DNA of 32,000 nucleotides, from NCBI GenBank assembly GCA_046497275.1, contig JAWOFX010000057.1, positions 90,001-122,000 on the forward strand, in the 5' to 3' direction. The notes beneath the pieces are model-generated. The model ran no database searches, was not told the origin of the DNA, and saw only the letters and a list, made by a program, of their open reading frames with translations. The translations under genes were made by a program, and so were the position numbers. Within the stretch, counting starts at the first letter, position 1. Every line of letters begins with the position of its first letter. The DNA is from Promethearchaeia archaeon. GTDB lineage: Archaea > Asgardarchaeota > Lokiarchaeia > Sigyniarchaeales > SOKP01. Positions 6,904 to 19,762 of this stretch are shown here, in pieces.

Positions 6904-8100
6904 TTAAATAATTTTTAATTTTTTTCCAACTTTTTCAATTGAACTTAATGCATTATCTAAATCTTCTCGAGAGAGTAAGAAATTCATTTGAACCCGTATT
7001 CTTGATAATTCTTTTGCGACCATAGGAAACACTATAGGAGTTGTATAAATATTTTCTTCTCTAAATAAGATATCTGCTAAGTCTTGTGCAGGTCCAGGGT
7101 CACCAATTATTAAAGGGATTATAGGTGTTTCTGATGCTCCCGTGTCGAAACCTAAGTTTTGTATTTCTTGTTTAAAATAATTTGTATGATCCCATAATGT
7201 TTTAACTCGAGAATTATCTTCTTGAACAACTTCTATTGCTGCAATACATGCTGCAACAACACTTGGAGGATGAGCTGTACTTAAAAGATAAGTTCTGCTT
7301 TTATTTTTCATGAAATCAATTAGATTTTCTGAACCCGCAATAGTTCCCCCAAAGACGCCAAATCCTTTAGACATTGATCCTCCTTCGATTTGAACTCTTC
7401 CTTGGAGTCCAAAATGATCAACTATTCCCTTTCCACTGTAATTTTTTCCCAGAACCCCTTCCCCATGACAATCATCAACAAACACCATTGCTCCATAATC
7501 TTCAGCTAAATCAGTAATATCTTTCAATGGAGCGATGTCTCCATCCATGCTGAATACTCCATCAGTTGTAATTAAAATGCGTCTTGCTCCTTTTTTATCA
7601 GCTATTTCTAGTTGCTTTTCCAAATCAGAAACATCATTATGTTTATAGACATAACGTGTTGCTTTTGTTAGCCTAATTCCATCGATTATTGATCCATGAT
7701 TGAGTTCATCAGAGATTACAGCATCATCCTCAGCTATTATTTGAGGTATAAGTCCTGAATTAACTGCAAATCCTGTTTGACATAATGCAGACGCTTCTAC
7801 TTCTTTAAACTCTGCTAATTTCTCTTCAAATTGTCTTGTTAAATCAAAAGTACCAGCAATCACTGGCACGGCTCCAGCACCAGCTCCATATTTTTTAACT
7901 GCATCAATCATCTTTTCTTTTAATCTAGGATGAGTTGCAAGCCCGAGATAATTATTTGTGTTCAACATTAATACGTCTTTTCCATTTACTTTGCAATGTG
8001 GTTGAGAGGCATTTTCTAAGTGTCTTATTTTCCAGTCTAAATCACTTTCACGTAAATCCTCCATCTCTTCTTTAAGAAATGCTAATGGATCCCTTTTCAT
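6904..8100 (-). CDS. kbl: Glycine C-acetyltransferase (2-amino-3-ketobutyrate CoA ligase), class II PLP enzyme
   Basis: NNYLGLA, SDELNHGSIIDG, TDGVFSMDGD, VDDCHGEG and PLP-lysine SMSKGFG; divergent from threonine dehydrogenase. ATG at 8100 preferred to GTG at 8109. BioF activity not excluded. Confidence 0.85.
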   Translation of the reverse strand: MKRDPLAFLKEEMEDLRESDLDWKIRHLENASQPHCKVNGKDVLMLNTNNYLGLATHPRLKEKMIDAVKKYGAGAGAVPVIAGTFDLTRQFEEKLAEFKEVEASALCQTGFAVNSGLIPQIIAEDDAVISDELNHGSIIDGIRLTKATRYVYKHNDVSDLEKQLEIADKKGARRILITTDGVFSMDGDIAPLKDITDLAEDYGAMVFVDDCHGEGVLGKNYSGKGIVDHFGLQGRVQIEGGSMSKGFGVFGGTIAGSENLIDFMKNKSRTYLLSTAHPPSVVAACIAAIEVVQEDNSRVKTLWDHTNYFKQEIQNLGFDTGASETPIIPLIIGDPGPAQDLADILFREENIYTTPIVFPMVAKELSRIRVQMNFLLSREDLDNALSSIEKVGKKLKII

Positions 8101-8274
8101 ATATATCACTACAAATAGTAAAATTCTTTATGATTATCTATTATTCCATATTATATAATTTTTTAATATTATTATTATTGTTTTAATGGATGGGTTTATT
8201 TTGGGAATACAATAAATTTTTCTTAATCTATAAATTATGAATTATATTTTATTTTGGAAATTTAGATGATGTAA

Positions 8275-9213
8275 ATGCGAATACTTGTGATTGGAAGTGC
8301 CGGTCAAATTGGGAGTGAATTAGTCCCTAAGTTATGGGAAAAATATGGCTTTTCAAACATAATAGCATCTGATATAAAATATTCTGTGGAGAGCCATAAA
8401 AATGATGATAAAATTTATTTAGATGTATTGGACAGAGAGAATTTATCAAAAATTATTTCTAAATATGATATTGATATCATTTATCACTTAGCATCAATTT
8501 TATCGGCAAGAGGTGAGGAAAACCCACCTAAGACTTGGAATGTCAATATGTATGGTTTATTAAATATTTTGGAAGTTGGAATAAAATATGATATCAAGAA
8601 AATTATTTGGCCGAGTTCAATAGCAGCATTTGGACCATCATCCCCAAAGGAAAATACACCTAATGAGACCATTCTAAAACCCATAACAATGTATGGTATA
8701 ACAAAAGTTAGTGGAGAATTACTGCTTAATTATTATAAATTAAAATATAATCTTGATGTAAGATCAGTTAGATTACCCGGTATTATTTCAGCAGAAACAA
8801 AACCCGGAGGAGGAACTACTGATTATGCAGTACAAATTTTCTATGAAGCTATTAAGAATAATAAATATACTTCTTATGTGAGTAGAAATACAATTTTACC
8901 AATGATGTACATGCCAGATTGCATCGCATCTCTTATTAATATTATGGAAGCAGATAAAGAGAATCTCACACGGTGTGTTTATAATGTGAGTGGTATGAGC
9001 TTTTCAGCAGGAGAATTGGCAGATGAGATCAAAATAAAAATCCCAGATTTTGAGGTCAATTTTAAGCCAGATGAGAGACAATTAATCGCAAACTCGTGGC
9101 CAAAAAGCATAGATGATTCTTTTGCTCGAAAAGAATGGAATTGGAATCCTAAATACAATCTTTCTTCAATGACAGAAGATATGATTGAAAAATTAAAGGA
9201 AAAATTATTATAA
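8275..9213 (+). CDS. tdh: L-threonine 3-dehydrogenase, SDR (epimerase/dehydratase-like) type
   Basis: GSAGQIG Rossmann motif, HLASILSARGE, YGITK (YxxxK), PGGGTTDYAV, PMMYMPD, SWP..IDDS.AR are typical of SDR-type TDH; next to kbl. Confidence 0.85.
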   Translation: MRILVIGSAGQIGSELVPKLWEKYGFSNIIASDIKYSVESHKNDDKIYLDVLDRENLSKIISKYDIDIIYHLASILSARGEENPPKTWNVNMYGLLNILEVGIKYDIKKIIWPSSIAAFGPSSPKENTPNETILKPITMYGITKVSGELLLNYYKLKYNLDVRSVRLPGIISAETKPGGGTTDYAVQIFYEAIKNNKYTSYVSRNTILPMMYMPDCIASLINIMEADKENLTRCVYNVSGMSFSAGELADEIKIKIPDFEVNFKPDERQLIANSWPKSIDDSFARKEWNWNPKYNLSSMTEDMIEKLKEKLL

Positions 9214-9408: not shown

Positions 9409-10614
9409 ATGTATTTTATATTTATAAATATAATAAGCCTTATTATTGGCTATTTTATTGGTTCCATTAATCCTGCTTATATTTTTGGAAAATTAAAAGG
9501 TATAGACATAAGAGAAGTTGGAACTAAAAATGCTGGAACTACGAATCTTTACCATACTTTTGGGGCAGCTTACGCAGTGCCAACAGCAATTTATGATACT
9601 TTGAAAGGATTATTAGCTATGTCTCTTTCTTGGATTTTGGGGGCGAATTTCATTTTTATGAATCTTAGTGGTCTATTAGTTATTGTAGGACATATATTTC
9701 CATTTTATTTGAAATTTAAGGGAGGACAAGGAGTTGCGACTGCAACTGGTATTATGCTTTTTTATTTGATCGATTATATGTTTTTAATCAATTGGGTTGA
9801 TTTTCTTTTCTTTCTTGCATTTATGCTTATATTGGTTGGAATATTCGCATATGTGACTAAAACTGGCGAATTTTTATCAATTCTCTTATTACCCATATTT
9901 GGTTATTATATATATCTACAATATCCTAATGAACCCTATAATCCATTTTTATGGATCATTCTCTTACATATCATCTCAATCGGGCTGTATAATATAATAA
10001 GCAAAAAATTAATTGTTATAGATGATGAGGGGTTTAAAAAACATAAATGGCGCGTTTTAGCTCGTCCTTTTGCTGTTTTGTTTATTATTTTTCATTACTA
10101 CTTGGATGATGTAGTATCTGTGTCGATTGTTGGTATTGTTGCTTTAGCTTTTATATTTCTTGATATCATAAAAATTTTAAGTAAGCAGACTCAAGATATA
10201 TTCTCAAAAAAAGTAAAAGCCGTGTTTAGAAAAGGTGAATTAACAAAATTCTCCTCCATGACAGCATTTTTAGTTGCAGCTTTTATTACTATGCTTATTT
10301 TTGAGAAAAACATAGCTATTACATCACTCGCTTTTATAATATTTGGAGATATATTCAGTAAAATATTTGGTTTAGGATTTGGAAAAATAAAGATATTTGA
10401 TAAAACGCTGGAAGGGTCTTTAGCTTATTTAGGATGTGTCTTAATTTGTTGCTATGTTCTATATTATACAATAGGAATGAATTTTTATATCTTGTTGATT
10501 GGAGCAATTTCCGCTCCAATAATAGAAATATTTTCGATCAATGTAAACGATAACTTTACCGTACCACTAATTTCTGCCACGGTAATGACTGTTGGTGTCT
10601 TTTTTGGGCTTTAG
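9409..10614 (+). CDS. Fusion: N-terminal PlsY-like acyltransferase + C-terminal CTP-dependent lipid kinase-like domain (dolichol/phytol/Dgk1 family)
   Basis: N half: GYFIGSI, DIREVGTKNAGTTN, DTLKG, GHIFP..LKFKGGQGVAT. C half: GDIFSKIFGLGFGK...KTLEGS and NDNFTVPL. Confidence 0.85.
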   Translation: MYFIFINIISLIIGYFIGSINPAYIFGKLKGIDIREVGTKNAGTTNLYHTFGAAYAVPTAIYDTLKGLLAMSLSWILGANFIFMNLSGLLVIVGHIFPFYLKFKGGQGVATATGIMLFYLIDYMFLINWVDFLFFLAFMLILVGIFAYVTKTGEFLSILLLPIFGYYIYLQYPNEPYNPFLWIILLHIISIGLYNIISKKLIVIDDEGFKKHKWRVLARPFAVLFIIFHYYLDDVVSVSIVGIVALAFIFLDIIKILSKQTQDIFSKKVKAVFRKGELTKFSSMTAFLVAAFITMLIFEKNIAITSLAFIIFGDIFSKIFGLGFGKIKIFDKTLEGSLAYLGCVLICCYVLYYTIGMNFYILLIGAISAPIIEIFSINVNDNFTVPLISATVMTVGVFFGL

Positions 10615-13908: not shown

Positions 13909-16797
13909 TTAAAAGATTATATCGTTTTTTCGCCCATAATATTTTACAATTTCAAAAGAAATTATGCAGATTAAAGAGATTAGAAAACATACTAACCAAT
14001 CTTGCCAGGTAAGAAACATAAACATAAAATTTATACCTACTGCTGCTAGGGTAGTCTGGACTCCAGGTATGTAAATTAACATTATCAGAATCGCAAATAG
14101 AAATCCCGTAATAGAAAACATTAGCCGAGTTCTATCTTCCTTCAAGCTTTTTAATAAGGATTTATTGGGCCTTCTTATTTGAAATACTAAAGAAGTTTCA
14201 CAGAAAAATAGTGTCACCATCAACATTGTTAATGTTTTACCATTTATTCGATCTGTGAGAGTTCCAAATTCGCTACCACTTGTGTAAAGATAAAAATCAT
14301 TCCATTCTCCGAATTCATAATTTTCGGGAAATAAAGGGTAGGCCCCTGTAATAGTTATGAAATAGACTAACAACATCGAAATTGTTAATAAAATCCCGAA
14401 TGCGAATAATAGAAGAATTGTGTTTTTGGAAAGTATTTCCTCAGAGTTTCGGGGTTTTTCATTCATTACGTCACCTGAGGTTTTATCAAATGTTAATATT
14501 AACCCTGGAAATGTATGGAGCGTAATTGAAAGAAATATCCATTGAAAATAAAATATCTCTGGTTTAAGAAAATATGGTAATTCAAAAATGACAGCGAGAA
14601 TAAATTGAACAATTCCTTCAAATAAATTAATACAAATATAGAAAAATACAATCGCACGAATCTTTGAAAAAATACCCCTTCCTTTTTGGATACCAGTTAC
14701 AATTGAATTAAAAGAATCATCTGAAATTACCATATCTGAAGCTTCTTTTGCTACATCCGTTCCTTGAATTCCCATCGCAATACCAACATCAGCCATATTT
14801 AATGCTAGAGAATCATTAACTCCATCTCCAGTCATGGCTACCACTCGATTTTCCTCTTTATATCTCTTAATGATATCTTCTTTATTTTTCGGGGATACAC
14901 GAGCAAAAACTTTTACGTGATTAAATTCTTCTGATGATTCTAATTCATTTATTTGGCTCCCCTCAATAACTTTGTCATTCTCATTTTTTATTATTGATAT
15001 TTGTTTTGCTATAGCTTCAGCTGTAATCTTTGAATCTCCTGTGATCATCAAAGTTTTAACTCCTGCTTTTTCACATGTTTCCACAGATTCTCTTACTCCT
15101 TCTCTTGGAGGGTCTAAAATAGTGACGAATCCTAAATAAACCATATCCGATTCAAATTTATCTCTATTCTCATCCGAGAGTTCAGGCAACATATAAAAAT
15201 CTTTATAACAAAAACTTAATACACGATAACCTTGTGAGGCATAACTCTGGATTAGATCATTTACTTCTTTTCTCAGTTCATCAGTAAATTCTTTTTCAGT
15301 ACCTTTATAACAGATTTGATTACATCTCGGTATAAGTATTTCACTTGCTCCTTTGGAAAATGAATAATTTTTTTCATCTTTTTTATATATTTTAGTCATT
15401 CTTTTTATCGAAGAATCAAATGGATATTCTTTCACGAAATCATAATCTTCTAAAAGATAATCTCCCATAATCTTTTGAAAAAGAACTACTAAAGCCCCCT
15501 CAGTTGGAGATCCAATTACTTTCCAGTTATTGATAATTTTAGCCCCTTTTCCCGAACTTTCAATCTCTGACTTGACAAGGGCAGAATTATTGTTCAAAAA
15601 TCCAGAAATTAATAATAATTTTAAAAAGGGATAATCTTCGATATGCTTAATATAACTTGGGTTTTTTTTATCATCAATATTAACGATCTCTCCTTCTGGT
15701 TTGTATCCACTTCCTGTGATCTTAAAAATTGAACCATTTGAATAAATATGTTGTACAGCCATTTGATTTTTAGTTAAAGTGCCCGTTTTGTCTGAGCAGA
15801 CTACGCTTACTCTGCCAAGACTGTCTACAGATGCTAGGTTTCTAATTATCACCCCTTCACGAGCCATAGCTAAAACACCTGTTAGTAAAACAATTGTAAT
15901 TAATAAGGGTATATTAATTGGGAGTATATCTAAGGCTGAGTTCAAACTTATCACAATCTCATTCTCAGTAAAGCCTCTTGTGACCCATTTAAAGAATAAA
16001 ATAACTAGCCAAAGCACAATTACAGCAATACCCAGCCATTTCCCAAAATGATTCATTTTTTTTTGAATAGGGATTTCAGTGGTTCCTGCCTTCTTTAAGC
16101 CCTCAGATATCTTTCCTATCTCTGTTTCCCCGCCAATTTTTACAGAAATCGCTCTTCCATTTCCCATAGTGACATATGTTCCATAGAATATCATATTCTT
16201 TCTGTCTTGGATTGGTCTTGTATCTTCTATTGCTTTTCCTTCTGAATCCTTTTTTACCGGTTCACTTTCTCCAGTTAATGATGCTTCATTTAATTCTAGA
16301 TTAGTGCCTGAAACAATTCTAGCATCTGCCGGTATCTTATCTCCTTGATTAATAACTAACAAATCTCCTTTAGTAACTTCTCGAGTTGGGATTTCCATTT
16401 TCTTCCCTTCTCGTATAACAGTGGTGGTGGGAGCAGCTAACTCTTGTAAAGCTTTTAGTTTTTTCTGAGCTCTAAATTGCTGAATAATGGCAACCAAGCA
16501 ATTTAATAGAACTATTCCTAATGTTAAAGCAACAATTAAAAGATTTCCCCTAAATCCAAGAAGACTTGCTAATAATAATATTAATGCTCCTAATAAATAA
16601 ATAACAATTAACCAATTGAATAAGGGCGCTAAATAAATCTTTACGAAACTTCTCTTATATTCTGGAAGTTCATTATATCCATATTGCTGAATTCTCTCTT
16701 GAACTTGTTTCTCGGTGAGACCTTTTGTAGGATCTGTATCGAGTTCTTCATAAAGACTATCTAAACGTAATTTATAATAATTTTGATCAATTTCCAT
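13909..16797 (-). CDS. P-type ATPase, P2A-like scaffold with non-canonical transport site (paralog 1)
   Basis: LTGES, phosphorylation site DKTGTLT, KGASE, DPPREGV, MITGD, MTGDGVND; TM4 reads DILPINIP instead of AIPEGLP. Confidence 0.93.
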   Translation of the reverse strand: MEIDQNYYKLRLDSLYEELDTDPTKGLTEKQVQERIQQYGYNELPEYKRSFVKIYLAPLFNWLIVIYLLGALILLLASLLGFRGNLLIVALTLGIVLLNCLVAIIQQFRAQKKLKALQELAAPTTTVIREGKKMEIPTREVTKGDLLVINQGDKIPADARIVSGTNLELNEASLTGESEPVKKDSEGKAIEDTRPIQDRKNMIFYGTYVTMGNGRAISVKIGGETEIGKISEGLKKAGTTEIPIQKKMNHFGKWLGIAVIVLWLVILFFKWVTRGFTENEIVISLNSALDILPINIPLLITIVLLTGVLAMAREGVIIRNLASVDSLGRVSVVCSDKTGTLTKNQMAVQHIYSNGSIFKITGSGYKPEGEIVNIDDKKNPSYIKHIEDYPFLKLLLISGFLNNNSALVKSEIESSGKGAKIINNWKVIGSPTEGALVVLFQKIMGDYLLEDYDFVKEYPFDSSIKRMTKIYKKDEKNYSFSKGASEILIPRCNQICYKGTEKEFTDELRKEVNDLIQSYASQGYRVLSFCYKDFYMLPELSDENRDKFESDMVYLGFVTILDPPREGVRESVETCEKAGVKTLMITGDSKITAEAIAKQISIIKNENDKVIEGSQINELESSEEFNHVKVFARVSPKNKEDIIKRYKEENRVVAMTGDGVNDSLALNMADVGIAMGIQGTDVAKEASDMVISDDSFNSIVTGIQKGRGIFSKIRAIVFFYICINLFEGIVQFILAVIFELPYFLKPEIFYFQWIFLSITLHTFPGLILTFDKTSGDVMNEKPRNSEEILSKNTILLLFAFGILLTISMLLVYFITITGAYPLFPENYEFGEWNDFYLYTSGSEFGTLTDRINGKTLTMLMVTLFFCETSLVFQIRRPNKSLLKSLKEDRTRLMFSITGFLFAILIMLIYIPGVQTTLAAVGINFMFMFLTWQDWLVCFLISLICIISFEIVKYYGRKNDIIF

Positions 16798-16841
16798 AGA
16801 GATCTACTTTAATGTTTATTTAAACTATATAAGAACATAAG

Positions 16842-16879
16842 TTATCTTTTAATAATGATAATAAGACTATAAAAGATAA
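16842..16879. repeat. Perfect 10-bp inverted repeat, 18-nt spacer, between the tandem ATPases
   Basis: TTATCTTTTA (16842-16851) / TAAAAGATAA (16870-16879). Confidence 0.5.
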
Positions 16880-16906
16880 GTTTTAAAAATTTTTAGAAAA
16901 ATACTA

Positions 16907-19762
16907 CTAAAAAAAATTTCCCTTTTTATGGAAATAATACTTATACATTTCTATACCAATAATTCCTGGGGATGCAAATAAAATACACATAAGCCAATCA
17001 GTGAAAGATAAAAATAGGAAATTTAGTTGGAAATTTAAACCTAAAATATTATTAATGACATTATTAACAGGATATGAAAATAAGACTAATAGAATATGAA
17101 TTAGGAGTGTAAATAAGACCACTAAAAATAATTTCAATGAGAATTCCTCCTTAATACTTTTTATAAGTTGTTTATTTGGTCGCCTAAATGTCCAAATGAA
17201 TGTGGTTTCCGCAATATATAACGTAGTAATAAACATTGTTCGTGCTTTCTGGTCAATTAATTGCTTTGGTGTAAAACTAGTTATATAACTTAGGTTTGGG
17301 TTTAAATTATATTTATTCAGTGGAAATCCACCAGCTAGAGTTATTTGTAAGACAAGTATTAGACCTATTCCTATTAGGAATGCTTGAAGAATTAACATTT
17401 TCCACATATTTTTATTTAAAATACCCTCATCATTTCTAGGAGGTTCTTTCATTATATCTTTTGGATATGTATCAACAACTAAAGCTAAAGAAGGTAATGA
17501 ATGAACTATCCCAAAAATATAGATATGTTGCCAATTTGAGATGAATAAATCAAAAAATGGAGAAAATTCATAAGCGAAAAAAATCAGACCTTCCATTAAA
17601 TTAAGACATATAAAAAAGTATATAATCGTCCTAATACGTGAAAAGAGCCCCCGTCCAACCTCAATACCCTTTCTAATAGAAATGAAATTATCATCTGAAA
17701 TTACCATATCGGATACGTCTTTTGCAACGTCTGTTCCAGTTATACCCATTGCAATTCCACAATTAGCCAATTTTAACGCAAGAGAATCATTAACACCATC
17801 TCCAGTCATAGCAACTACCTTTTTTTTCTTCTGATAATTATTAACAATAATTTCTTTATCTGATGGTTGAACTCGAGCGAATACAGTTATTTTCTCAAAA
17901 TCTAATTCATCTATATTCTTCATTTCATTACCTTCGATTACAATATCACCAGGATTAAAAATTCCTACCTCAGAAGCAACAGTTTTAGCTGTAGAAGGAT
18001 GATCTCCTGTGATCATAGTAACTTTAATATTAGCTGATTTACAATCTTCTACAGCTCCCTTCACTCCATCTCTAGGTGGATCAATGATGGAAATAACTCC
18101 TAATAAAATAAGATCTTGTTCTACTTCCTCCCTCTTTTTCATATGAATATCATCATCAAAATCAATATTTTTATAAGCTATGGCTAAATTTCTATAACCC
18201 ATATTCCCCTTTTTCTCTATTTTTTTGATTATATCACTTTTCATCATATTATCCAATATTTGTTTCTCTCCTTCAATTTCGATAAATCTTGAAAGATTTA
18301 ATATAATTTCGGGCGCACCTTTTGAGAATGCATATATTTTTGATTCATTACTATTACGTTTACAAATAGTGGTCATTCTCTTGATTTCTGAATTAAAAGG
18401 AAATTCTATAAGAATATCATAGTTACTTCTAATATCATAAATAATAACTCCAAATTTTTCAGCTAAAACTAATAATGCTGCTTCTGTAGGTGAACCTAAC
18501 GCCTTCCTAACTGCTTGAGATTTAATATTATGTTTTTTAATTTTCACATCTTCATATATCAGCTTAGCGTTATTATTTAATACCATCGAATCAATGAATT
18601 TTGAATAAGTGGGTTTGTTATTCAAACGAAATTTCTCTCCATCTTTCAAAACTTCACCTTCTGGATCATAGCCAGAACCAGTTACCTTTAAATCCTCATA
18701 ATTAATCCACATCTCTTCAACTGTCATTTCATTTTTAGTAATGGTTCCAGTTTTATCAGCGCAGATAACTGAAACCCTTCCCAAAGACTCTATTGAAGAT
18801 AAATTCTTAATAACAACTCCACTTTGAGCCATATTTAATACACCTGTTATTAAAACTAAAGTGACTAATAATGGTAAATTAATTGGCATGATATTCATTG
18901 CTCGCAATATTGAGTCTGTAAGTGCATTGGAAACCTCTTGATTTAAAATTGTCAATTTGTAAATGATGAGAACGGTAAGATTAATCAGAACGATTGTACC
19001 TAAGACATAGCCTAATCTATTTAGTTTTTTAGTTAAAGGAATCTCTTCTATCGATCCCATTTGATTGAGAGATTCCGATATTTGTCCTATTTTTGTCTCT
19101 TTCCCAGTACTTGTAATAACGACTTTAGCTCTTCCCGTATGTATATAAGTGCCCATAAAAACCATATTTTTTTGATCTTGTATAGGAATATCTTCTCTTT
19201 CAGGAATTTCTTCATTCTTTTCTATAGGCTCACTCTCGCCGGTCAAGGGAGCTTCATTCACAGATAAATCACTTGAATTAAAAATCCGTCCATCAGCGGG
19301 AATTTTAGAACCTTGATCTAATAAAACAATATCCCCTGGAACAATATCTCGAGAAGGTATTTCTTTTTGCTCATTATCACGAATGACTGTACTATTCAAA
19401 GCGGAAATTTTTTTGAGTGAATCTAAGGCCTTTTGAGCTCTATATTGTTGAATTATAGCAGTAGAAGAGTTAATGAACACTACTGTAAAGGTAATAATTG
19501 TTTCTGAAGGGGAACCAAGAATTATTATTGCAATCCCTGCGATGATAAGTATTAGAATTAAAAAATTAAATATTGGCGCTAAATAAATCCTCCATAGATT
19601 TCTTTTAACCTCTGGTAATTCATTATACCCATATTTTTCTATTCTTTTATTAACTTGTTTTGGATCTAATCCCTTTTTCGGATCAGTATTAAACTCTAAT
19701 AATAATTGGTCGAGTGATTTATTATAATAATTTGAAATCTTTTTGGAAGATTTATTAATCAT
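16907..19762 (-). CDS. P-type ATPase, P2A-like scaffold with non-canonical transport site (paralog 2)
   Basis: LTGES, DKTGTIT, KGAPE, DPPRDGV, MITGD, MTGDGVND; TM4 reads NIMPINLP. Confidence 0.93.
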   Translation of the reverse strand: MINKSSKKISNYYNKSLDQLLLEFNTDPKKGLDPKQVNKRIEKYGYNELPEVKRNLWRIYLAPIFNFLILILIIAGIAIIILGSPSETIITFTVVFINSSTAIIQQYRAQKALDSLKKISALNSTVIRDNEQKEIPSRDIVPGDIVLLDQGSKIPADGRIFNSSDLSVNEAPLTGESEPIEKNEEIPEREDIPIQDQKNMVFMGTYIHTGRAKVVITSTGKETKIGQISESLNQMGSIEEIPLTKKLNRLGYVLGTIVLINLTVLIIYKLTILNQEVSNALTDSILRAMNIMPINLPLLVTLVLITGVLNMAQSGVVIKNLSSIESLGRVSVICADKTGTITKNEMTVEEMWINYEDLKVTGSGYDPEGEVLKDGEKFRLNNKPTYSKFIDSMVLNNNAKLIYEDVKIKKHNIKSQAVRKALGSPTEAALLVLAEKFGVIIYDIRSNYDILIEFPFNSEIKRMTTICKRNSNESKIYAFSKGAPEIILNLSRFIEIEGEKQILDNMMKSDIIKKIEKKGNMGYRNLAIAYKNIDFDDDIHMKKREEVEQDLILLGVISIIDPPRDGVKGAVEDCKSANIKVTMITGDHPSTAKTVASEVGIFNPGDIVIEGNEMKNIDELDFEKITVFARVQPSDKEIIVNNYQKKKKVVAMTGDGVNDSLALKLANCGIAMGITGTDVAKDVSDMVISDDNFISIRKGIEVGRGLFSRIRTIIYFFICLNLMEGLIFFAYEFSPFFDLFISNWQHIYIFGIVHSLPSLALVVDTYPKDIMKEPPRNDEGILNKNMWKMLILQAFLIGIGLILVLQITLAGGFPLNKYNLNPNLSYITSFTPKQLIDQKARTMFITTLYIAETTFIWTFRRPNKQLIKSIKEEFSLKLFLVVLFTLLIHILLVLFSYPVNNVINNILGLNFQLNFLFLSFTDWLMCILFASPGIIGIEMYKYYFHKKGNFF

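Follow-up and report, generated by a model that had tools for sequence, protein, structure and literature searches.

The gene at positions 9409–10614 of the window, by which we mean the whole 32,000-nucleotide stretch analyzed here, encodes a PlsY-type acyltransferase fused to a CTP-dependent kinase-type domain in which the RKxxH triad of the prenol and diacylglycerol kinases is changed to RxxxR. This fusion is a conserved, unstudied variant of two known families. Our favored reading, which we judge about evenly balanced between right and wrong, is that the C-terminal domain acts as a CTP-dependent fatty-acid kinase in place of FakAB and supplies acyl-phosphate to the PlsY half.

A conserved two-domain membrane protein

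The open reading frame is single and intact, running on the plus strand (as do all features of the gene given below) from an ATG at 9409 to a TAG at 10614, and it encodes a polytopic membrane protein of 401 amino acids; its GC content (29.6%) is genome-like. The AlphaFold model of the whole protein has a pLDDT of 85 and a pTM of 0.80. The first-pass annotation had called a PlsY domain followed by a domain of the CTP-dependent kinase type, and both calls were right: residues 4–203 (9418–10017) match Pfam PF02660 (residues 13–184, E = 8e-34), residues 205–401 (10021–10611) match the kinase family at the profile level, and the folds match as well. We obtained 906 full-length homologs of similar length and 79 genome loci with the fusion; thus, the fusion is conserved and is no assembly artifact. 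Contigs from RNA libraries in four salt-lake runs (two studies) cover parts of both halves at ~99% identity, in data that carry neither strand nor level, while a scan for promoters and terminators gave matches at chance level only. A literature search, mostly outside subscription papers, found nothing on a PlsY–kinase fusion and no paper naming both "PlsY" and "dolichol kinase."

The PlsY half appears to keep its donor site and to have a rebuilt acceptor site

The PlsY half shares the seven-helix fold of Aquifex aeolicus PlsY (PDB 5XJ5–5XJ9), with 26–27% identity in structural alignment; residues 4–203 of our model align to 5xj5 with Z 16.9 and an rmsd of 3.1 over 176 residues. It differs from the Aquifex enzyme in being fused to a kinase, in belonging to a genome without PlsX or Fak, and in scoring under the TIGR00023 equivalog cut-off (109.1 vs. 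137.2 bits). Motif 1 (GTKNAGTTNLYH, 9520–9555) and motif 2 (FKGGQG, 9715–9732) read as first quoted, and motif 3 (HxxNIxRL...E) is indeed missing, as had been noted, since a profile–profile alignment with canonical PlsY ends at residue 172. The seventh helix, the expected site of motif 3 (H177, N180, R183, and E189), is present in the model (9964–9996) although the motif is absent.

Li et al. (PMC5700162) assigned the acyl-phosphate hole of PlsY to H92, the backbone of residues 104–107, A40/T41 and N37, and the G3P pocket to S35, R45, K104, N180, S142, and H177; the clamp residues are 89%–95% conserved and each is required for activity in their mutagenesis table, with S35/R45/K104 conserved at 92%–95% in 7,288 homologs. 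Alignment of motif 1 to 5xj5 gives the equivalences (Aquifex = here) S35 = T39, G36 = K40, N37 = N41, A40 = T44, T41 = T45, N42 = N46, and R45 = H49. By these equivalences, the acyl-phosphate site is present in our protein, with H95 (9691–9693) as the H92 of the "phosphate hole," G105/G106/G108 of motif 2 as the glycines of the backbone contacts, N41, and T45; relative to Aquifex, H92, the GGxG loop, N37, G39, N42, and the helix 2 D/K pair are all retained. In contrast, the G3P phosphate clamp (S35, R45, K104, N180) is lost, with T39, H49, and Q107 in its place and no N180. The full set of changes comprises S35T, R45H, K104Q, a variable S142, and the absence of H177, N180, R183, and E189.

The 86 Loki fusions divide in the same way. 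H92 and G102/G103/G105 (Aquifex numbering) are present in 86/86, N42 in 85/86, and N37 in 69/86 (I or V in 17/86), and a hydroxyl occupies position 40 or 41 in 86/86, with T41 variable and the residue corresponding to our T44 nearly invariant. S35, R45, and K104 occur jointly in 0/86, compared to 30 of 32 canonical WOR-3 PlsYs, which, together with the 92%–95% conservation of these residues (PMC5700162), indicates that the substitutions are uncommon in genuine PlsY. Since the phosphate-hole residues are near-invariant, the three clamp residues never occur together, and motif 3 is gone, the donor side appears to have been kept and the acceptor side rebuilt in the Loki fusions.

The residues of the rebuilt pocket allow for more than one acceptor. 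Position 36 is often K or R in the fusions (K40 here), and because 49 of the 86 Loki copies have at least two basic residues at positions 36/45/104, there is room for a phosphorylated acceptor. A nonphosphorylated acceptor is possible too, and a Lys or Arg at 36 could stand in for K104; an acidic residue at 35 or 104, found in 18/86 copies, argues that some paralogs take another acceptor. That the acceptor is an alcohol other than glycerol phosphate or an amine, lipids included, we regard as a toss-up; that it is G3P or G1P, with K40 in the role of K104, seems credible but on balance doubtful; and that the PlsY half transfers no acyl group at all is distinctly unlikely. The proposal that the substitutions select G1P was rejected as unnecessary, since ordinary PlsY already accepts G1P (PMC13400652). 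Elsewhere, motif-3-less PlsY paralogs overlap a family-2 glycosyltransferase-like gene (L105:1501–3218; L214:1–1313), which suggests acylation of a glycoside or glycolipid.

The kinase half carries RxxxR in place of RKxxH

The C-terminal half found no match in Pfam or NCBIfam scans, and nothing under E 0.001 with Foldseek. Its membership of the CTP-dependent kinase family is borne out by homologous C halves that match PF01148 (CTP_transf_1; E = 2e-5 and 1.5e-3), by its end-to-end alignment with an RKxxH kinase (hhalign probability 99.9), and by its motifs; JGI annotates close stand-alone relatives as "dolichol kinase" or "diacylglycerol kinase (CTP)." The CTP-binding signature, GD314xxxKxxGxxxG and KTLEG, lies at 10345–10419, and the kinase-type C-terminal motif E373...N-D381-N382..VP, common to the RKxxH kinases of this genome, at 10525–10566; both are nearly invariant (here D314, G321, G325, K332, E335, G336, E373, D381, and N382). 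By motif position, D314 is equivalent to D177 of Dgk1, the conserved Asp of the CTP-binding block, which is essential there (PMC2459266).

The first-pass annotation missed the change of RKxxH to RxxxR. The triad is replaced by R215-V-L-A-R219 (10051–10065), with R219 placed on the His by profile alignment, and both Arg residues are invariant in 57 diverse fusions, while four other full-length kinases of the same genome keep RKxxH. Docking of Plasmodium PolK puts the N-terminal RKxxH at the substrate hydroxyl (bioRxiv 10.1101/2023.07.17.549440). The genome has five further genes of the CTP-dependent kinase family (C69:254–1351, C47:11396–12553, C11:13673–14797, C111:45196–45987, and C36:1–444), three of them with a long N-terminal membrane extension; the four readable ones are all RKxxH.

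In a comparison that used RKxxH homologs from genomes, not the characterized Dgk1, VTE5, or DOLK sequences, the C half had in common with Dgk1, VTE5/FOLK, Plasmodium PolK, and Sec59/DOLK (CTP_transf_1 superfamily, COG0170) the first Arg, GD..G...G, KTxEG, and E...DN. It differed from the Dgk1/VTE5/Sec59-type kinases in having RxxxR for RKxxH, in being nearly always coupled to PlsY, and in its proposed acceptor, which would be a carboxylate rather than an alcohol. The cytidylyltransferases CdsA and CarS have a C-terminal metal-binding motif, KDxG..PGHGG..DRxD. Modeled alone, the C half shares the superfamily fold of CdsA (Thermotoga, PDB 4Q2E; Z 9.8, rmsd 7.3, 178 aligned residues, 17% identity) and archaeal CarS (PDB 5GUF; Z 7.5), the top two of 48,161 chains, and residues 217–401 of the whole model also align to CdsA (Z 8.8); it differs from both in lacking the KDxG..PGHGG..DR motif, with the kinase-type E...DN in its place.

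RxxxR kinases are linked to PlsY in several gene layouts

The 46 WOR-3 genomes contain 25 Arg-type kinases, of which 12 form fusions with PlsY, 12 immediately follow a plsY gene (several of these pairs with overlapping stop and start), and one is unlinked. Thus, 24/25 RxxxR kinases are linked to plsY, compared to 0/27 His/Asn (RKxxH/N) kinases that adjoin it. The WOR-3 partner PlsYs are all without HxxNxxR, and nearly all of those genomes have a separate canonical-scoring PlsY as well; in the split pairs, the partner keeps S/T35, R45, and K/R104 in 14/14. The pairing occurs in three layouts: N–C fusion, overlapping gene pair, and a reverse-order fusion (P0226). An RKxxH kinase was found coupled to PlsC instead of PlsY: in Poribacteria (L118:2369–3603), the genes of a PlsC-type acyltransferase and an RKxxH CTP-dependent kinase overlap and are candidates for a Dgk1-like pair in bacteria.

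In a kinase-domain tree whose search was quick and left unfinished, and whose labels were automatic and noisy, the Arg kinases separate from the His kinases. A single origin and one ancient partnership, rather than many events, are probable for the RxxxR kinases, and since the Asgard fusions also form one clade, within one family, the WOR-3 and Asgard counts cannot be treated as independent.

Fusion carriers lack the DegV that nearly always accompanies stand-alone PlsY in other Asgard genomes

The acyl-phosphate donor of PlsY comes from PlsX or FakAB (PMC9136124). That Loki PlsY occurs without PlsX is known but unexplained (PMC6737245, PMC6431249, PMC9385802), from passages that make no mention of the fused kinase. 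We found no PlsX, DegV, Dak2, or acetate/butyrate kinase in the source genome (98.9% complete), and no Dak2 or DegV domain in the fusion protein itself. No PlsX was found in the order (0/101 genomes) or the phylum (0/121) and no DegV in the family (0/26), and Dak2 and acetate/butyrate kinase occurred in 0/6 carriers tested, with Dak2 and acetate kinase missing from the five carriers besides the source.

Stand-alone PlsY occurs in 26 of the 121 Asgard genomes, and 25 of these have DegV over the cut-off; no other genome in the sample has it. The fusion is carried by 16 of the 121, none with DegV, and 79 have neither form of PlsY. Dak2 was present in 4/5 DegV genomes checked, PlsY and DegV occur in the same 4/7 genomes of one family (f21), and other Asgard families (L260:1588–4161, L261:1745–3380, L262) have Dak2 (FakA-like)–DegV–PlsY (L260) and DegV–PlsY strings. 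Genomes of another family (f7) have 9–15 DegV matches each. In the sole genome with stand-alone PlsY and no DegV (L255:1–2360), a plsY paralog overlaps a PPDK_N (PEP-synthase-like) gene, possibly a further kinase for acyl-phosphate or acceptor. No sampled Asgard PlsY is without a phosphotransferase, and in the fusion carriers the fused kinase takes the place that Fak has in other genomes.

We favor a fatty-acid kinase mainly because of this occupation of Fak's place in the Asgard sample. We also favor it because the donor site is kept and the acceptor site changed in the 86 Loki fusions, because carriers are without a known acyl-phosphate source (PlsX, DegV, Dak2, acetate/butyrate kinase), because the His-to-Arg change tracks PlsY linkage (24/25 vs. 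0/27 in WOR-3), and because the pairing is retained in three layouts. The gene distribution suggests that the kinase activates free fatty acids, which if true would be a new route to acyl-phosphate. The proposed job, conversion of free fatty acid to acyl-phosphate for PlsY, is that of FakA/FakB in Firmicutes (PMC9136124), although the two systems have no homology and this one is an integral-membrane, CTP-type, single-chain enzyme with no soluble fatty-acid carrier. Within the Asgard sample, the fusion has the same genomic role as the Dak2–DegV–PlsY strings and is mutually exclusive with them. A membrane-anchored alpha/beta hydrolase, encoded in 31/80 loci, adds slight support.

Against a fatty-acid kinase, no member of the CTP-dependent kinase family is known to phosphorylate a carboxylate, a phosphate monoester would be an equally suitable ligand for the Arg, and what the His of RKxxH does is deduced from a docking model. 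Nor is N37 fully conserved (I or V in 17/86 Loki copies), and relatives in which an intact kinase accompanies a decayed PlsY half, or one short of two helices (326–347 aa), suggest that the kinase can be useful alone. Moreover, the bacteria are without Fak/PlsX complementarity, and the Asgard carriers are one family. DegV occurs in 6/20 WOR-3 genomes with the module compared to 7/26 without it, and 8/8 bacterial carriers have PlsX plus an extra PlsY, for which reason we rejected the idea that the kinase replaces PlsX in bacteria. WOR-3 genomes also have a DegV–Dak2 fusion (779 aa) overlapping a noncanonical plsY, and FakA, DegV, and two noncanonical plsY genes in one string (L258:2072–5076; L259:2–4035).

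An Mmp4/MtxX protein, with weak similarity to phosphotransacylases (Pta/Ptb), is present in 5/5 carriers tested and, judged by that similarity, could be an alternative acyl-phosphate source. One such gene in a Loki-type genome, L263:3471–4349 (G000:C59:73970–74848, minus strand), encodes an MtxX "methanogenesis marker 4" protein above the TIGR03270 cut-off.

A possible mechanism and its alternatives

On the fatty-acid kinase reading, the whole protein would be a bifunctional membrane enzyme for fatty-acid salvage. The C-terminal domain would draw a free fatty acid from the bilayer, with R215 and R219 holding its carboxylate, and would transfer the gamma-phosphate of CTP to it, yielding acyl-phosphate in place of the soluble FakA/FakB pair. 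The PlsY domain, as its conserved donor site predicts, would then use the labile acyl-phosphate through the phosphate hole (H95, GGxG, N41, T44, and N46), a consumption that would pull the uphill first step, and would pass the acyl chain to an acceptor in the remodeled pocket. The reverse operation, in which ester phosphorolysis makes CTP, was rejected on energetics. Extended to the subfamily, the proposal is that RxxxR proteins are integral-membrane CTP-dependent fatty-acid kinases, derived from lipid-alcohol kinases by the His-to-Arg change and working with PlsY paralogs that acylate a non-G3P acceptor, in Lokiarchaeia, WOR-3, Calditrichota, CPR bacteria, and other archaea; to this broader claim we give slightly less than even credence.

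Among the alternatives, the best survivor, which we think unlikely, is the order put forward in the first-pass annotation, in which acylation of a neutral acceptor, such as glycerol, by the PlsY half comes first and the resulting lipid alcohol (MAG or DAG) is turned into lyso-PA or PA by the kinase half, with acyl-phosphate coming from PlsX in bacteria and from another enzyme, perhaps MtxX, in the archaeon. All characterized members of the kinase family are alcohol kinases (Dgk1, PMC2459266; PolK, bioRxiv 10.1101/2023.07.17.549440), the phosphate clamp is eroded in the fusions, and bacterial carriers do have PlsX, as archaeal carriers have MtxX. However, all PlsY-linked kinases have lost the His of RKxxH, while the genome keeps four RKxxH kinases; the clamp residues of the split partners (14/14) make their acceptor look already phosphorylated; and it goes unexplained that the fusion carriers alone among PlsY-bearing Asgards lack DegV. 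Acylation followed by phosphorylation is thus less supported, since it leaves the PlsY half without a known acyl-phosphate source and the kinase without its triad His.

We also considered that the substrate of the kinase half is itself a lipid phosphate (polyprenyl phosphate, lyso-PA, or PA), which it converts to a diphosphate, and that the PlsY half, with little or no catalytic activity, serves to bind the phosphate of this lipid in its phosphate hole; this we think decidedly unlikely. RxxxR would suit an anionic substrate, the G3P residues of the PlsY half are unconstrained, with N37 and T41 variable, and conservation is more even across the kinase half than in the acceptor pocket. In some relatives (P0270, P0255, L132) the PlsY half has decayed beside a retained kinase, and short forms of 326–354 aa that lack two helices of PlsY are found on archaeal contigs and in a mostly Yanofskybacteria cluster. 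The decayed relatives fit either a fatty-acid kinase or a lipid-phosphate kinase. Nevertheless, a pocket that merely holds lipid sits poorly with the retention of H92, GGxG, N42, and a hydroxyl at 40/41 in nearly all fusions, with the split partners that retain most of the clamp, and with the Asgard DegV pattern, which it does not explain. Furthermore, only 4/14 Fak-fed Asgard PlsYs have a hydroxyl at position 41, and motif 3 is sometimes missing from them too (L260), so that losses at these places do not signify lost catalysis.

Finally, it is very improbable that the C half is a CdsA-like cytidylyltransferase turning lyso-PA from a near-ordinary PlsY into CDP-lipid: such an anionic substrate would come straight from the PlsY half, and CdsA and CarS are the best structural matches, but CdsA is only the nearest available fold (17% identity, rmsd 7.3), with no kinase of the family among the solved structures searched, and the KDxG..PGHGG..DRxD metal motif is absent while the kinase-type E...DN is invariant.

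Distribution, origin, and gene context

The homologs closest to our gene are named Lokiarchaeota/Promethearchaeota, which points to a Loki-type Asgard archaeon as the source, and fusions outside the Lokis come from WOR-3, Caldithrix, and one Eubacteriales genome. Among the 121 Asgard-phylum genomes, the fusion occurs only in the source genome's own family (16/26). Matches labeled, for example, Hodarchaeota by NCBI were not counted as a wider range because they fall inside the Loki-fusion clade and have its gene order. In a tree rooted on the split pairs of WOR-3, the 12 Loki fusions included group as a single clade (100/99) nested among the fusions of bacteria; the Loki fusion was likely gained from bacteria, on the best tree only, as an AU test does not reject monophyly of the bacterial fusions (P = 0.0975).

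The gene looks accessory in its family, since it is patchy there (missing in 10/25 relatives) while a double-domain PlsC is widespread. The latter, 577 aa long, contains two complete PF01553 (PlsC) domains (G000:C71:51597–52811; L081, L082), found in most of the 24/25 family genomes with a PF01553 match, fusion carriers or not; it could catalyze both acylations from acyl-CoA.

There is no lipid operon in the gene context of the fusion. Its neighbors within the window encode a Kbl-like aminotransferase, an NAD-dependent epimerase/dehydrogenase, and a deacetylase; the first two, a divergent Kbl/BioF-family PLP enzyme and an NAD-dependent epimerase-type dehydrogenase (6904–9213), are unrelated to the fusion and probably serve threonine degradation. 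Two adjacent large ORFs (962 and 951 aa), the first a P-type cation ATPase, lie on the minus strand at 13909–19762. In relatives, the fusion sits between TFIIB and ProRS. Many carriers have two to four tandem copies with differing pocket residues; in L011, L013, L017, L043, L078, and others, two to four tandem fusions lie between TFIIB and a conserved gene of 245–280 aa plus ProRS. In the source genome, the TFIIB–ProRS locus is on contig C51, without the fusion, which is on C172.

Implications for the lipid divide

The first-pass annotation had linked this gene to ester or hybrid lipid synthesis across the lipid divide. That bearing is weaker than was stated, as the gene is patchy, shared with bacteria, and limited to one Asgard family. 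With PF13685, the source genome gave partial matches to G1P dehydrogenase and none of full length. The Loki "PlsY" forms one of the two domains of an enzyme that may produce its own donor; other Asgard PlsYs come with Fak. Because the G3P site is remodeled, and because the gene is patchy and groups with bacterial fusions, we caution against reading Loki plsY as an ordinary G3P acyltransferase gene or as a sign that ester membranes are ancestral in Asgards. If the fatty-acid kinase reading is true, PlsX and FakAB would be joined by a third way of making long-chain acyl-phosphate, and the dolichol/phytol/Dgk1 kinase family would gain new chemistry. A single gene bears on whether this Lokiarchaeon esterifies fatty acids, and onto what.
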